A stretch of DNA of 64,000 nucleotides from Escherichia phage vB_EcoM_LNA4: sequence record MZ311864.1. The stretch is one strand, 5' to 3'. The notes under the pieces were generated by a model. The model was given only the letters and a program-made list of their open reading frames with translations. It made no database searches and was not told where the DNA came from. Below, piece by piece: positions 16,420 to 61,811 of this stretch. The position numbers were made by a program, and so were the translations under genes. The number at the start of each line of letters is the position of its first letter. The stretch's first letter is position 1.

Positions 16420-16809
16420 TCATCGAACAAGACCATACTCCTTTTGCAGTTTCCACTCGGCATCGTTCATGTACATTGTACGAACGTGTTTACGGAGACC
16501 ATCGAAATCAACGCAAGGAGTTTCGTTGTTCTCTTCGTACTTATCCCGTGCAAGGCTTGCAAGGATCTCAACATCCTGTCCAAGCGGGTCATAGCCCAAG
16601 GCATGTTTACGGAACATGAACACATAACGACCTTCGTCGTCCTCTACCTCGTCTGCCATTTCAGGCAGGGTGTCAGCACGTTCTTGCCAATAGTTGTACA
16701 GCTTCACCGCATCTTCTGGAGACTTCAATCCGAAAGACAGATCTTCATTCTGCCAGCCCAGCCAATCGGCAATGGCTAACAGCTTTTCACGGGCATTGAG
16801 TTCACTCAT
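16420..16809 (-). CDS. hypothetical protein
   Basis: Acidic ORF, start at MSELNAREK. Confidence 0.4.
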   Translation of the reverse strand: MSELNAREKLLAIADWLGWQNEDLSFGLKSPEDAVKLYNYWQERADTLPEMADEVEDDEGRYVFMFRKHALGYDPLGQDVEILASLARDKYEENNETPCVDFDGLRKHVRTMYMNDAEWKLQKEYGLVR

Positions 16810-17081
16810 TATTTGTTCTCCCATTTATTCATGTAGTTAACAAGGTCTTTTACTGACCGTTTGCCGTCAAGAGGGTAAACCATATCACTCTCCATCCCAC
16901 CGTGTGTCAGCATCTTTACTAAACGAGTATACACATGCTCATGACGATTGCAACGTCTAATTTTCCATTCCTTTCCATCGGGGGAATATTCTTTCTCTTC
17001 GGTGGAGATATGGATCAAGTCGCCCATGTACTCTTTGAAGCGAATGCTCTCCAGTGGTCGATAGTATATGAAAAATTTCAT
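16809..17081 (-). CDS. hypothetical protein
   Basis: Start at MKFFIYYRP with AAGGAGA RBS. Confidence 0.4.
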   Translation of the reverse strand: MKFFIYYRPLESIRFKEYMGDLIHISTEEKEYSPDGKEWKIRRCNRHEHVYTRLVKMLTHGGMESDMVYPLDGKRSVKDLVNYMNKWENK

Positions 17082-17142
17082 GTGTTCTCCTTTGTTGAAC
17101 AGAGAATAATGTCTCACCACACAGATGTCAAGCACAAAAACG

Positions 17143-17166
17143 AAAAAACCCGCCGAAGCGGGTTAA
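17143..17166 (-). terminator. rho-independent terminator
   Basis: ACCCGC-CGAA-GCGGGT hairpin followed by T6 on minus strand. Confidence 0.55.
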
Positions 17167-17168
17167 TT

Positions 17169-17447
17169 TTACCAGGTAACGAAAAAGTTTATTGAAGTGC
17201 CTTGCACTGTCGGTTGGTAGCTGATGATGTCAACTGTGAAACCTCCATTACGAAGATCCCCAACAATATGAGGCAGATAATCACTCATCTCCACCGGGAA
17301 GTCCATTGAGAGTCCCATCCCGAACATCCCCTTCCTTGCACACTGAGCTATCCCGCTCACTATCTGGTCGAAGATGTCTTTCATTTCTGGCGGCGTTTGC
17401 TTTTCTGCGTTGTTTGCGATCTCTCGCATCTTGTTTGCGACACTCAT
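17169..17447 (-). CDS. hypothetical protein
   Basis: Start at MSVANKMRE with GGAGGGA RBS; overlaps 3' extension of methyltransferase ORF. Confidence 0.35.
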   Translation of the reverse strand: MSVANKMREIANNAEKQTPPEMKDIFDQIVSGIAQCARKGMFGMGLSMDFPVEMSDYLPHIVGDLRNGGFTVDIISYQPTVQGTSINFFVTW

Positions 17448-17961
17448 CGCTCTGTCCCTCCAGGAAGTAAAATGGTTCCAGATTAAGTCTGTTCTTCTTG
17501 TCCCAGACAAAATAGGCATAGCCTGAACCGTCTGTCTTGCCGTCATCTGTGAATGATGGTCTTTGAGATAAGACCATCAGACTGGTTGGCTTATTGCTCT
17601 GCCACCATTCGTTTCTTGTCTGACTTTCCAAGAAACCAAGACGAAGTAACATGATCACAACATCGGCATCTTCAAGAGCCTTGGCAACAAATGCCTGAGC
17701 TAAAGAATATGGTGGATTTGTGATGATACAGTCAACATGGTTGTACTCGGTATTCAGATAATCCACACCATGACGAATTTCACCCCAAGCAGAACCAATC
17801 GGCATATGGTTGTAGAATCTACCAGACGCTCTACAAGGCTCTAAGTATTTCCAGTGTGGGTTGATAGGGATAACATCCAAAAGGGCCGTCACAGCCCATT
17901 CTGGTGTCTCATATACGTCATAATCCCTACGTTCTCCCTTCTTCTTCAAAGGCGCAGACAT
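17281..17961 (-). CDS. DNA N6-adenine methyltransferase (Dam-like); 3' end uncertain
   Basis: Catalytic motif DCIITNPPYS; C-terminal 50-60 residues look like out-of-frame translation of the next gene. Confidence 0.6.
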   Translation of the reverse strand: MSAPLKKKGERRDYDVYETPEWAVTALLDVIPINPHWKYLEPCRASGRFYNHMPIGSAWGEIRHGVDYLNTEYNHVDCIITNPPYSLAQAFVAKALEDADVVIMLLRLGFLESQTRNEWWQSNKPTSLMVLSQRPSFTDDGKTDGSGYAYFVWDKKNRLNLEPFYFLEGQSDECRKQDARDRKQRRKANAARNERHLRPDSERDSSVCKEGDVRDGTLNGLPGGDE

Positions 17962-18893
17962 TAGTTCCCCATTCTCTCCAGGACATCAGCCATAATCTCT
18001 TCTGAAGCTGCCAGAATAGCATCAATCAGCTCTTGACGATTACGAACGTTGACAACCAGAGGATCTTCGGCCCCGATAGCCATTGCACCAATCTGGGAGT
18101 AGATGGTTTGCAGTTCTGCCACGTTGAATGGGTCGAAGTCCTTAGCCTGAAGTGTAGACACATCGAACTTGAATACCTCTCCCTCAACTTCGATTTTCAG
18201 GAAGATGCTCTCCGGGGTTCCTGCCGGAAGGTTATCCAGATCAACATTCTCAATCACAGTTTTGTCTTTCGGCCCCTTCTCCTTCTCACCGGAGATGATT
18301 GGGCGTTGACCTTCCTGCATACGTTTGATGTTGCGCTCATCAAGCAGAACTGCCGGGGTGCGTTTCACGATCTCCACTTCATCCATCCAGACCTGTCCAC
18401 CACCTTTGATTGTGGCGATCTCCGTTTCTGTCAGAACACCACTGTAGAAGGTATCGATCAAACGATCAAAATAGTGCTTCTCAAAGGCAATTTGTGCGTA
18501 CATGTTTGCACCATCACCATATGTCCCACCCTGATAGTTGTGGAACATAAACTCGGTCAGCGGAGACACTGTACGATCCTTACAGGCCAGCCACAGGACT
18601 GTACCAGCAGAGCAGACATTGCCCTCTGCGTGTGTCACGATAGACGCCTGGCTTTCACGAATTGCGCTTACGTAGGCCATAGCGATGGAGACAACACCAC
18701 CAGGGCTGTTGATCACCACACGAATAGTATCATCGGGGGATGCCTGACGGATTACCTGCAAACGGTCCTGATGGTCTTCCAGCCATGACAGGTCATCAAT
18801 GTAGATGACATGATCGTGAGAGTGAACAGGGTAGCTGTAGATATTCCCGTGCATACCCGGCATCATACCGAAAAAGTTCTTGTTCTGTTCCAT
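17961..18893 (-). CDS. ClpP/S49-like serine peptidase
   Basis: VVINSPGGVVS motif typical of ClpP-type proteases; start at MEQNKN with GAGGAGG RBS; TAATG overlap with methyltransferase gene. Confidence 0.55.
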   Translation of the reverse strand: MEQNKNFFGMMPGMHGNIYSYPVHSHDHVIYIDDLSWLEDHQDRLQVIRQASPDDTIRVVINSPGGVVSIAMAYVSAIRESQASIVTHAEGNVCSAGTVLWLACKDRTVSPLTEFMFHNYQGGTYGDGANMYAQIAFEKHYFDRLIDTFYSGVLTETEIATIKGGGQVWMDEVEIVKRTPAVLLDERNIKRMQEGQRPIISGEKEKGPKDKTVIENVDLDNLPAGTPESIFLKIEVEGEVFKFDVSTLQAKDFDPFNVAELQTIYSQIGAMAIGAEDPLVVNVRNRQELIDAILAASEEIMADVLERMGN

Positions 18894-18894
18894 A

Positions 18895-19377
18895 TTAATC
18901 CTCCTCACGAGCGTTTGCAATGTAGCCTTTCAGAATGTAAGCATTTCTCATCAGCCAGTCGATGTAATACCCTGTTTCGTCATCGACAAGTACCTGGTCG
19001 CTGTACTTGAATGTCACGAGAACTTTTCTCGCCCTTTCAGAGGCTACTGCTGCGGTGTGCAGCATGGTGAACTTGTCAAGCTCTTCTTTCTCAACAGTCA
19101 CATATTTGGATTTACCATCCAGATAAATCAGGTGGTTAAGTAAATCACGACGATCCGGGAACATCCACCGTGCATCTCGTTCTGCTGCGGCTGGACTATA
19201 AATCATTCGGGTAAAGAACCCATCGTTCATCTCATACAGAGACTGAGCCACTACCTTGCGATAAAAATTGAAGAGGCTTTCCGCTTCAGCATCAAACAGC
19301 CCTGGAGAAACTACCCCACAATTCTTCAACTCCATCAGTTTTCGATGGGAGATAACCCCATGAATACTAACTGTCAT
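18895..19377 (-). CDS. hypothetical protein
   Basis: 160-aa ORF with AGGAG RBS. Confidence 0.45.
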   Translation of the reverse strand: MTVSIHGVISHRKLMELKNCGVVSPGLFDAEAESLFNFYRKVVAQSLYEMNDGFFTRMIYSPAAAERDARWMFPDRRDLLNHLIYLDGKSKYVTVEKEELDKFTMLHTAAVASERARKVLVTFKYSDQVLVDDETGYYIDWLMRNAYILKGYIANAREED

Positions 19378-59564: not shown

Positions 59565-61115
59565 GTGTCAACAAGATTTGCACAACCAGGGGCGGTTGTA
59601 AAGGCAGGGAATGAAAACCTTGCTGTTAGCCGCCTCCGTACCGGGGAATTAGGCTCTGGTGCTCTCTCCCAGCTTCGTGCAGAGTCCGAAGTGATGAAGG
59701 TAGAAGAGCTACGCTGGCCTTGCTTCCTAGCTACCGTAGAGGCGATGAAACAGGATCATACTGTCTCCACGGCGCTTGATACGAAATACGTATTCGTAAC
59801 CAAAGCATTCAACGATTTTAAAATCCTGTTTAATCGTGATAGTAAAGCTTCCAAAGATGCCGCAGAGTTTGTAGAGTACGCCCTGAAGAACCTTGCTAAC
59901 CAGCAAACTCTTCGTGACGTTGCTCGTAGTGCAGCAACTTTCAACGAATATGGTTTCTCCATCTTTGAGAAAGTATACCGTACTGAATCTGCTCCGTCAA
60001 AGTATGCAGGCTACATCACAATTGATAAGATTGCTTTCCGTCCTCAGTCAAGTCTTTCACGTTACAAACCTTGGGTTTTTGACGATGATGGTCGCACACT
60101 GAAAGGAATCTACCAAAGCAAACTGGCTTTTGCTAATTTCCAGAACGGACTGACTCAAGTATCATCTGCCATGACCTTGGTGACAAACTTAACATCCAAT
60201 GCTGATGAAGTGTTTATCCCAATCAACAAATTGATGGTTATGAGCCTTGGTGGTACAGAATCTAACCCGGCGGGTGTTTCTCCTCTGGTTGGGTGTTATC
60301 GTGCTTTCCGTGAGAAGATTCTGATTGAGAACCTTGAGACCATTGGTGCTTCTAAAGACCTCGGTGGTATCATCGAACTTAAAATCCCTTCTCAGATCCT
60401 GAACAAAGCGGCAATGGACCCTAAATCCCCAGAAGCTGATATGGTTCAAGGATTAATGGCTGACGCTGCAAACGCACACGCAGGTGAGCAGGCTTACTTC
60501 ATCCTCCCTTCAGATATGAACGCTCAGGGTGGGGAACAGTACAAGATGGCCCTCAAAGGCATTGACGGTGCTGGTAAGCAGTATAGCACACAAGAATTGG
60601 TGAACTCACGTAAGAAGGCGATCCTTGACCGCTTTGGTGCTGGCTTCATTAACCTTGGTAACGATGGTCAGGGTTCCTACAACCTGTCAGAATCCAAGCA
60701 ATCTATCCACGGTCACTTCGTTCAACGCGATATCGACATCATTGTTGAAGCGTTCAACAAGAACCTGATCCCACAGCTTCTGGCACTGAATGACATTCGT
60801 CTTTCTGATGAAGACATGCCAAAACTGAAGCCAGGTCTGATTCAAGAAGTGGATATGGAAGGCTTCTCTAAATTTGTTCAGCGTATCGGTGCTGTTGGAT
60901 ATCTTCCTAAGACTCCTACAGTTATCAACAAGATCCTTGAGGTCGGTGGCTTCGATGAAGAAATCCCGGAGGACATGTCCACTGAAGAACTTATGAAGCT
61001 GCTCGGAGAGGATACTAGCCGCTCCGGTGATGGTATGGGTGCAGGCACATCCGGAAATGGAACAGCGAAAATCTCTTCGAAAAGAGACAATTCTACTTCC
61101 AATATGGATAATTAA
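59565..61115 (+). CDS. portal protein (by position and size)
   Basis: 516-aa ORF immediately after terminase; acidic C-terminus. Confidence 0.55.
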   Translation: MSTRFAQPGAVVKAGNENLAVSRLRTGELGSGALSQLRAESEVMKVEELRWPCFLATVEAMKQDHTVSTALDTKYVFVTKAFNDFKILFNRDSKASKDAAEFVEYALKNLANQQTLRDVARSAATFNEYGFSIFEKVYRTESAPSKYAGYITIDKIAFRPQSSLSRYKPWVFDDDGRTLKGIYQSKLAFANFQNGLTQVSSAMTLVTNLTSNADEVFIPINKLMVMSLGGTESNPAGVSPLVGCYRAFREKILIENLETIGASKDLGGIIELKIPSQILNKAAMDPKSPEADMVQGLMADAANAHAGEQAYFILPSDMNAQGGEQYKMALKGIDGAGKQYSTQELVNSRKKAILDRFGAGFINLGNDGQGSYNLSESKQSIHGHFVQRDIDIIVEAFNKNLIPQLLALNDIRLSDEDMPKLKPGLIQEVDMEGFSKFVQRIGAVGYLPKTPTVINKILEVGGFDEEIPEDMSTEELMKLLGEDTSRSGDGMGAGTSGNGTAKISSKRDNSTSNMDN

Positions 61116-61181: not shown

Positions 61182-61811
61182 ATGATGAAATACACAAGTA
61201 TTGCTGACCTTCCTGCATCGGTATCTGATCTGTCTCTCGTTCAGAAGAGCAAGGTACTGAATATTGCAAATGGCCTGATTGCTTCAGGCCAATCTCCTGA
61301 AGCCGCTATCGAGAAGGCTTCCAAAGACGTTCTAAACGTGAACGTTAAAACTGAAATCAACAAGTCAACCTCTGTTGTAAGCGTTCAGAAAGACGCTGGA
61401 GAGCAGATGATTTCCTACGAAGTCATTTACGAACCAGACGCCAAAGACGCTCACGGCGAATGGATGTCTGCTGAGACAATCGCTAAAGCAAAGCAGTCTT
61501 TTGATAAGGCACACGAAGCTGGCATTGTTAAAGAGAACCTCTTCCACATGGTTGAGACTGACTCTTTCACAATCGAGAAGACTTGGATTCAGGAAGAATT
61601 TGATGTGGTGGTTATCGGGACCGAGCAGGTAATTAAGGCTGGCACCTGGGTAGCTAAAGTTAAATATAACGACCCTGTTCTCTGGGACCTGAAAAAGTCT
61701 AACGTTGTTGGTGGTCTAAGCATTCAGTGCTCCGGCTCTATCGACAAAGAAACAGGTGAGATCACCAATGTTGATTTCGGTGTCGAATATGTTGAGGAAG
61801 ATGGCGAATGA
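61182..61811 (+). CDS. prohead protease (by position)
   Basis: 209 aa between portal and scaffold, the position of a T4 gp21-type protease; no strong motif. Confidence 0.4.
   Translation: MMKYTSIADLPASVSDLSLVQKSKVLNIANGLIASGQSPEAAIEKASKDVLNVNVKTEINKSTSVVSVQKDAGEQMISYEVIYEPDAKDAHGEWMSAETIAKAKQSFDKAHEAGIVKENLFHMVETDSFTIEKTWIQEEFDVVVIGTEQVIKAGTWVAKVKYNDPVLWDLKKSNVVGGLSIQCSGSIDKETGEITNVDFGVEYVEEDGE

Follow-up and report, generated by a model that had tools for sequence, protein, structure and literature searches.

Graded constraint in a methyltransferase tail read out of frame into a conserved downstream gene: probable overprinting in Seunavirus and related phages

The 64,000-nucleotide (nt) stretch of Escherichia phage vB_EcoM_LNA4 analyzed here (MZ311864.1; hereafter the window, within which all positions are counted) is assigned to Seunavirus (Vequintavirinae) and carries, on its minus strand, three consecutive genes whose boundaries run into one another. 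The first (17961..18893, ATG at 18893) encodes a predicted ClpP-fold serine peptidase of 310 amino acids (aa), with VVINSPGGVV at residues 59-68; the second (17281..17961) encodes a putative DNA methyltransferase of 226 aa, with DCIITNPPYS at residues 77-86; and the third (17169..17447, ATG at 17447), which begins MSVANK and is called gp92 below, encodes a 92-aa protein of PHROG 12158. The stop codon of the peptidase gene (TAA, 17963-17961) and the start codon of the methyltransferase gene (ATG, 17961-17959) have one base in common, as TAATG (17959..17963), and a Shine-Dalgarno-like GGAGGGA (17455..17461), which also codes for Leu-Glu-Gly of the methyltransferase, lies 7 nt upstream of the gp92 start. 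The methyltransferase and gp92 open reading frames (ORFs) share 167 nt (17281-17447, ~55 codons), gp92 being read in the +1 frame relative to the methyltransferase. A preliminary description made from the letters alone had singled out the INSPGG and DCIITNPPYS motifs, the TAATG junction and the ribosome-binding site ahead of MSVANK, all of which are present in the sequence, and had offered three explanations for the shared DNA: a genuine long overlap, a shorter methyltransferase, or a sequencing frameshift. Sequence identity over the 2.6 kb around the locus is 96% with Cronobacter phage GAP31 and with Enterobacter phage EC152, 87.5% with phage 4MG and ~78% with Salmonella phage PVP-SE1.

The methyltransferase ORF divides into three zones. 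In an AlphaFold model built with 94 homologs, a Rossmann core has a predicted local distance difference test score (pLDDT) above 90 over most of residues 21-170; a helix occupies residues 172-194 (ECRKQDARDRKQRRKANAARNER), with pLDDT ~85 over residues 171-190; and residues 195-226 are disordered, with pLDDT ~50. The three zones coincide with evolutionary boundaries. The catalytic core (residues 1 to ~170; 17452..17961) is, by homology and in the model, a minimal amino-methyltransferase Rossmann domain with an NPPY motif IV; the proximal extension, the predicted basic α-helix (17380..17448), shares its DNA with gp92 codons 1-22; and the distal extension with its stop codon (17281..17379), rich in Asp, Glu, Gly, Arg and Ser and predicted to be disordered, lies in the +2 frame of gp92 codons 23-56.

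Homology stops where the core does. When the 226-aa protein is searched by tblastn in 50,697 phage records, distant relatives align only up to residue ~155-171; residues 1-167 are homologous in all relatives, those ending at 169-180 aa included, and homology to the outgroup enzymes breaks off at window residue ~167-170. The methyltransferase is 177 aa long in Vequintavirus, 171 aa in Certrevirus and 169 aa in Serratia phage ChuuTotoro (169-180 aa among outgroups overall), and the extension is missing from all of these and from more distant homologs, although the 92-aa protein reaches the rV5-like phages. The extended ORF, at 225-227 aa, is found in GAP31, 4MG, PVP-SE1, Mydo, an Erwinia Henunavirus and, at identities as low as 63%, many metagenomic clusters; the gene measures 681 nt in the records of GAP31, 4MG, PVP-SE1 and EC152. 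Copies that are 100% identical occur in EC152 and in an IMG/VR contig (L009, UViG_2938709436), where gp92 is 100% identical as well. Among the 20 extension-bearing lineages that we gathered, 14 keep the 167-nt overlap and the other 6 have overlaps of 68-164 nt. Because the sister genera end the enzyme at 169-180 aa, the extension is read as a derived, overprinted tail: aligned with its homologs, as had been proposed as a check, the catalytic domain appears to end near residue 170, and the ~55 extra codons look derived in the Seunavirus/Mydovirus/Henunavirus lineage to which they are restricted, a direction of change that we infer by outgroup parsimony. The ORF recurs at full length in 14 of the 20 lineages, and a genuine long overlap is the best supported of the three explanations.

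The frame under selection changes along the overlap. On a tree built from the 20 lineages, with parsimony changes counted per codon position, the DNA upstream of the gp92 start shows 1.1/5.6/1.6 changes per codon at positions 1/2/3 of the gp92 register, which is the wobble of the methyltransferase, whose position 3 is position 2 of gp92. This wobble is still present over gp92 codons 1-7 (0.9/4.3/2.4); the profile is flat and low over codons 8-19 (2.7/2.1/3.3), as expected if both frames matter, and over codons 20-54 the wobble is that of gp92 itself (about 4/2.3/6.7). Estimates of ω (the ratio of nonsynonymous to synonymous change), obtained for both frames by an OLGenie-style classification of tree events, are likewise graded. 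In the methyltransferase frame, ω is 0.08 over the last nine codons before the gp92 start, which belong to the core and for which a gp92-frame value is not meaningful; it is 0.17 (0.04-0.29) over gp92 codons 2-7, 0.49 (0.26-0.85) over codons 2-19, 0.87 over codons 8-19 and 1.41 over codons 21-54, with gp92-frame values over the same four intervals of 0.43, 0.62, 0.73 and 0.47 (0.35-0.64). Codons 58-81, which serve as a nonoverlapping control, give ω of 1.66 in the methyltransferase frame, which is noncoding there, and 0.35 in the gp92 frame. A first pairwise, OLGenie-like run over the whole overlap returned a methyltransferase-frame ω of 1.07, which alone would suggest a spurious ORF; the graded constraint appeared once the overlap was split and events were counted on the tree. 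In the methyltransferase frame, residues ~172-179 are clearly constrained at the protein level, and those up to about residue 191 less strongly so. The preliminary description had taken the last 50-60 codons for a likely off-frame read, a view that a C-terminal extension conserved at the protein level would contradict, and conservation of this kind is found in the proximal part but not in the distal one. For the proximal third an off-frame read is at odds with the ω of 0.17 and with the predicted helix at pLDDT ~85; for the distal 32-35 residues it agrees with the ω of 1.41 and with loss in 6 of 20 lineages, but not with a frame that is stop-free and compositionally biased in the other 14.

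How the distal segment persists is the point on which explanations diverge. One possibility, doubtful in our view but the strongest of the alternatives, is that only the basic helix matters and that the distal ~32-35 codons are neutral read-through, inherited from an open ancestor and running to the first stop, which is set by a conserved xxT-GAT (Ser/Leu/Val-Asp) pair in gp92. This would account for a methyltransferase-frame ω over codons 21-54 close to that of the control, for a tail that is predicted to be disordered and is cut short by earlier stops in 6 of 20 lineages, and for synonymous changes in gp92 that are not suppressed (6.6-6.8 per codon at position 3, compared with 4.5-5.5 downstream). 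An open frame is far commoner than expected by chance: exact dynamic programming, with the 92-aa protein fixed and synonymous codons drawn from local usage, puts the chance that the methyltransferase frame is open over 55 codons at 0.002-0.025 per lineage, and the two rV5-like homologs without the overlap carry 5 stops in the equivalent frame. Against neutral read-through stands the pairwise divergence at gp92-synonymous sites, ~0.55-0.7 substitutions per site, at which an unselected frame should have decayed.

Composition speaks against neutral read-through as well. Third positions of gp92 coincide with first positions of the methyltransferase. Over codons 1-55 T makes up 7-13% of them and G 42-49%; over codons 57-92 the shares are 33-50% and 6-22%, compared with ~30% and ~20% in the background. 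The composition changes precisely at the methyltransferase stop, up to which G at the methyltransferase first position stands at ~50% against 20% in the background, and the rV5-likes show no such bias. We defined stop-risk sites as third positions in codons 20-54 where T would be a stop in the methyltransferase frame yet synonymous in gp92. In the 14 intact lineages T occupies none of 80 such sites, compared with 57 of 232 other sites; in the 6 truncated lineages the two proportions are 11/35 (31%) and 29/100 (29%). Among tree events, 0 of 29 third-position changes at risk sites ended in T, whereas 35 of 102 at other sites did, as did 8 of 18 in the same sequence context outside the overlap. 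This bimodal pattern, full avoidance or full relaxation, argues for selection that would hold the tail open for as long as it is intact.

The natural truncations bear on the same question. Earlier stops in 6 of the 20 lineages leave methyltransferases of 193-225 aa (219 aa in FENT2), all of which keep the proximal basic segment (D/E)(E/D)(C/S)R(K/R)...; the distal tail would be dispensable. Four of the six (L025, L037, L038 and L040) have gained extra stops beyond the new one, and in the four shortest variants (L037-L040) the read beyond the new stop loses its D/E/G-rich character and resembles ordinary off-frame sequence. Both the added stops and the lost composition count against a tail that was never under selection.

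We posit that the methyltransferase and gp92 form a genuine out-of-frame overlap that arose by overprinting, with a two-part extension laid over a full-length downstream gene, and we put the probability of this reading at roughly 0.6. The ancestral state would be the one kept in rV5-like Vequintavirus, a methyltransferase of ~170-177 aa with a stop that just meets the start codon of a 92-94-aa gene. The junction would then have been remodelled in the ancestor shared by Seunavirus, Mydovirus and Henunavirus, so that the frame ran ~55 codons into the 5' half of the downstream gene. The first ~20 residues of the extension (ECRKQDARDRKQRRK...) would form a basic α-helix under protein-level selection, which most likely helps a minimal enzyme, with no apparent target-recognition domain, to grip DNA; an acidic, Gly-rich disordered tail would make up the last ~32-35 residues, its sequence drifting and its frame kept stop-free in most lineages. 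A single mRNA, beginning upstream of the ClpP-like gene and running to the terminator after gp92, would serve both proteins, and ribosomes translating the methyltransferase would cross the internal Shine-Dalgarno sequence and start codon of gp92.

Several observations weigh against overprinting in this form. Over the distal 35 codons there is no purifying selection at the amino acid level, the ω of 1.41 being indistinguishable from the 1.66 of the control, and over codons 8-19 neither frame alone is significantly below ω = 1. When all 20 lineages are pooled, T is found at 11 of 115 risk sites and 86 of 332 others (p = 1e-4), but Fisher tests on T counts take related sequences as independent, and restricting the counts to intact lineages is partly circular. 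Truncation in 6 of 20 lineages means that any benefit of the distal tail is weak. Seven of the 20 lineages have ACG, AAG or GCA in place of the first ATG of gp92 (9 loci if L023 and L024 are counted: L003, L023, L024, L031, L032, L034, L037, L038 and L040), so that the true start may be Met1 or Met7, and the overlap 167 or 149 nt. Met7 (ATG 17429-17427) is conserved in all 20 lineages and lacks an obvious Shine-Dalgarno sequence; ahead of Met1, GGAGGG or GGAAGGG is present in most lineages and absent in L034.

A bolder form of the overprinting account would make the whole extension a functional module, in which the helix clamps DNA, the acidic Gly-rich tail folds back on the helix or mimics DNA and so tunes the activity of the methyltransferase, ribosome traffic sets the level of gp92 relative to that enzyme, truncations are adaptive retuning instead of decay, and the ClpP-like protein, with its additional C-terminal domain, is a phage-specific protease acting with or against host Clp unfoldases. 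We regard this combination as speculative and improbable.

Public annotation takes a different view of the downstream gene. In the records of GAP31, 4MG, PVP-SE1, SPLA5a, KE23, FENT2, Mydo, EC152 and pEa_SNUABM_56 (loci L001-L004, L007, L008 and L023-L025, those with an inconsistent downstream gene) it is 39, 40, 49 or 52 aa long or missing, and the PVP-SE1 record itself labels its fragment "similar to C-terminus of" rV5 gp119. If these records were right, the methyltransferase alone would code in the overlap and a gene of ~40-52 aa would start at an internal Met (GAP31_128, PVP-SE1 gp153), as several GenBank/RefSeq records have it and as might be suggested by the 7 of 20 lineages in which the long form has lost its first ATG. 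We consider this very unlikely, since over codons 21-54 gp92 shows wobble of its own and an ω of 0.47 (0.35-0.64). The protein has homologs over residues 1-92 across three named genera and metagenomic lineages, extending to rV5-like phages at 40% identity; it matches PHROG 12158 along its full length; and it aligns without gaps to the rV5-like homologs, where the gene is annotated at 94 aa and there is no overlap. Gene callers report an 86-aa product wherever the methyltransferase is shorter, and gene calls on metagenomic contigs skip gp92 wherever the methyltransferase is full length; the downstream gene is shortened or omitted because gene callers disallow long overlaps. That the downstream gene is real, as first described, thus holds over its full length. 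By homology and substitution pattern gp92 appears constrained from end to end and coding in its overlapped half, and for that reason the short public annotations of 39-52 aa are contradicted and, we conclude, wrong; the error is systematic in genomes of Seunavirus, Mydovirus and Henunavirus and is corrected here.

Beyond the overlap, codons 56-67 of gp92 (17247-17282; DYLPHIVGDLRNGG) form the most conserved motif of the protein, and their third positions are ~81% T, compared with 30% in the background, in all eight lineages first examined. A third overlapping feature was considered at this place and set aside, the T-ending codons being read as strong conservation combined with codon preference.

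Two further explanations were considered. A programmed +1 ribosomal frameshift could fuse the methyltransferase core to the 92-aa protein; the adjacency of the two frames is its sole support (a slippery site or stimulatory structure was not searched for in depth), and we judge it highly improbable, given that gp92 in the window has its own Shine-Dalgarno sequence and ATG, that the rV5-like pair stands in another frame relation without such an overlap, and that the methyltransferase frame is open far past any plausible shift site. A sequencing or assembly frameshift in the window, with the true enzyme ending near residue 170 as in the rV5-likes and within the 169-180 aa of its relatives, is effectively refuted, because the same 225-227-aa ORF structure recurs in dozens of genomes and metagenomic contigs that were sequenced independently and span Seunavirus, Mydovirus and Henunavirus.

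The putative enzyme that carries the tail is placed among the amino (N6-adenine or N4-cytosine) DNA methyltransferases on the usual grounds, a motif IV of the form (D/N/S)PP(Y/F) on a class I Rossmann fold. N82, P83 and P84, within the TNPPYS motif of the window, are invariant in the 94 homologs. A sequence search of solved structures with the methyltransferase gives no meaningful match, the fold search alone being informative: the nearest solved folds found by Foldseek are N6-adenine DNA methyltransferase domains of type I HsdM, CamA and M.BseCI, with template-modelling (TM) scores of ~0.45-0.53. Pfam Dam (PF05869) scores 19.6, below its cut-off of 28.1, over residues 68-123 only, and neither the methyltransferase nor the 92-aa protein nor the XkdF-like protein discussed below has a match in NCBIfam. 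The label Dam-like given in the preliminary description is accordingly imprecise, since the Pfam match falls short; the nearest folds are γ-class N6-adenine methyltransferase domains. In Certrevirus CB7 a ClaI digestion pattern was taken by the authors as Dam-type methylation (PMC7344957); for methyl transfer by the present family this is only a lead. Relatives without the overlap, P0028-30, P0054, P0070 and P0072 among them, often end in basic tails of their own that are unrelated to this one, such as ...GGWNKPRDRGKGKNKK and ...KNRERKRKPKKSSRKSKRKEKNTS, and from their recurrence a basic C-terminal appendage looks like a recurrent functional accessory, one that plausibly serves DNA binding. 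The basic tail thereby offers a lead on how a ~170-aa enzyme without a recognition domain could bind DNA.

The ClpP-like protein matches Pfam CLP_protease (PF00574; 46.7 bits, cut-off 20.2) and PHROG 5410 and misses every NCBIfam ClpP and head-protease cut-off (29 bits against 308.6 for the ClpP equivalog). Ser95 and His118, which align with the catalytic Ser and His of ClpP, are invariant in 64 homologs, and no alignment places the Asp. The AlphaFold model (mean pLDDT 88.9) has a core at residues ~27-195, a disordered linker at ~196-225 and a C-terminal domain at ~228-307 made of a β-hairpin and helices (pLDDT 91-96), whose function is unassigned, residues ~205-310 being encoded at 17964-18281; Foldseek superimposes ~170 residues on ClpP structures with TM scores of 0.7-0.77 (normalized to the target) and root-mean-square deviations of 2.4-3.2 Å. 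The model and alignments together identify it as a probable serine peptidase of the ClpP fold that retains the Ser and the His. Its full-length homologs belong to Vequintavirinae phages or to metagenomic contigs. A protein 99% identical to that of the window (P0121) is deposited as an Enterobacter asburiae protein. In the literature we found nothing relevant on phage-encoded ClpP-like proteases in Vequintavirinae, and the rV5 genome and proteome paper mentions neither protease nor methyltransferase.

This peptidase had been described as distinct from the probable prohead protease near the capsid genes, and the gene order bears this out. The ClpP-like gene is ~42 kb away from the head module, among genes for replication and nucleotide metabolism that form a long block on the minus strand. 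In the head module, on the plus strand, a putative prohead protease of the XkdF type (61182..61811; Peptidase_S78_2, PF14550, 58.2 bits against a cut-off of 24) directly follows a Mu-type portal gene (59565..61115) and precedes the scaffold and capsid genes; in GAP31 the head genes stand in the same order, with decoration and major capsid genes coming next. The XkdF homolog CB7_5 was detected in Certrevirus CB7 virions by mass spectrometry, and all 26 virion proteins of that phage map to the structural region except CB7_55, none of them being assigned a Clp-type function (PMC7344957). The idea that the ClpP-like protein is the capsid maturation protease in related phages was considered and rejected: it scores 51.9 against a cut-off of 120 for NF045542, its gene lies outside the head module, and the XkdF-type protease, whose homolog is in CB7 virions, fills the slot there. 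By location, the ClpP-like protein would be a nonstructural product of an early or middle gene.

The three genes appear to form one transcription unit. An intrinsic terminator (AACCCGCTTCGGCGGGTT and a T-run, 17137..17164, minus strand; hairpin 17164-17147), found by a terminator scan, is directly followed by a σ70-like promoter (17103..17131, minus strand; TTGACA, 17 nt, TATTCT; 10 of 12 consensus positions) that serves the next gene. The hairpin (AACCCGCTTCGGCGGGTTTTTT) and the TTGACA box are conserved nearly base for base in Seuna-, Mydo- and Henunavirus, and in relatives without gp92 an equivalent terminator-promoter pair lies directly 3' of the methyltransferase stop; the predicted terminator would end the ClpP-like/methyltransferase/gp92 unit. 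At the other end, GAP31, 4MG, PVP-SE1, Mydo and CR9 share the 1-nt TAATG overlap of the ClpP-like gene and the methyltransferase; in Henunavirus the overlap is 4 nt, and in the rV5-like phage nom the two genes stand 51 nt apart. The TAATG junction, conserved in most genera and not obligatory, makes plausible the translational coupling that had been supposed. The junction also appears to be an insertion hot-spot: in two metagenomic relatives, L029 (828-1526) and L037 (441-1139), a 232-aa ORF without a Pfam match lies between the two genes, and in Klebsiella phage KP12 (H38) the methyltransferase match is split in two, with an annotated HNH homing endonuclease beneath or beside it.

Some features of the neighborhood are recorded here in their own right. 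The gene after the promoter (16809-17081, minus strand; MKFFIYY...; 90 aa, PHROG 7526) and the upstream neighbor of the ClpP-like gene (18895-19377, minus strand; 160 aa, PHROG 7224) are conserved, of unassigned function, and hold their places across the subfamily, even in relatives without gp92. In six loci of metagenomic relatives (L032, L035, L036, L038, L039 and L040) a protein of ~175-190 aa with a GmrSD_N domain (PF03235) is encoded 2-4 genes downstream of the methyltransferase, whereas the window shows no evident ORF of ~175-190 aa at the equivalent location.

Both enzymes of the unit resemble known systems in part. The ClpP-like protein shares with bacterial ClpP (MEROPS S14, PF00574) the fold, the aligned Ser and His and the NSPGG oxyanion-loop motif, but is only ~20% identical and has ~115 extra C-terminal residues with a folded domain; its likeness to ClpP-related phage head maturation proteases (NF045542; PHROGs 1684 and 94) is a distant similarity in the protease core. 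The methyltransferase has the NPPY motif IV and Rossmann fold of γ-class N6-adenine domains and of the phage Dam family, from which it differs as a minimal domain of ~170 aa with no recognizable target-recognition domain. The closest counterpart of the overlapping pair is found in the rV5-like phages (nom genes 113/114; rV5 gp118/gp119), where orthologous genes follow the ClpP-like gene in the same order, but the methyltransferase is 177 aa long, its stop overlaps the next start by 4 nt (ATGA), and the frame relation is +2 rather than +1.

Overprinted genes are known from viruses, the overlaps of phiX174 and MS2 among them, and there are virus gene pairs whose younger frame encodes a disordered, compositionally biased protein. 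The pair described here would be a new and well-documented case of this known phenomenon. Like known overprinted pairs, it has two sense frames, of which the younger appears lineage-restricted, disordered, charged and fast-evolving, and the older keeps its wobble. Unlike them, the new frame is a C-terminal extension of an existing enzyme and not a new gene, and its constraint is graded from a helix to a drifting tail, with repeated natural truncations serving as controls. An enzyme would thus have gained a tail by reading into its neighbor, and several independent truncations reveal how the same sequence fares once selection is relaxed.

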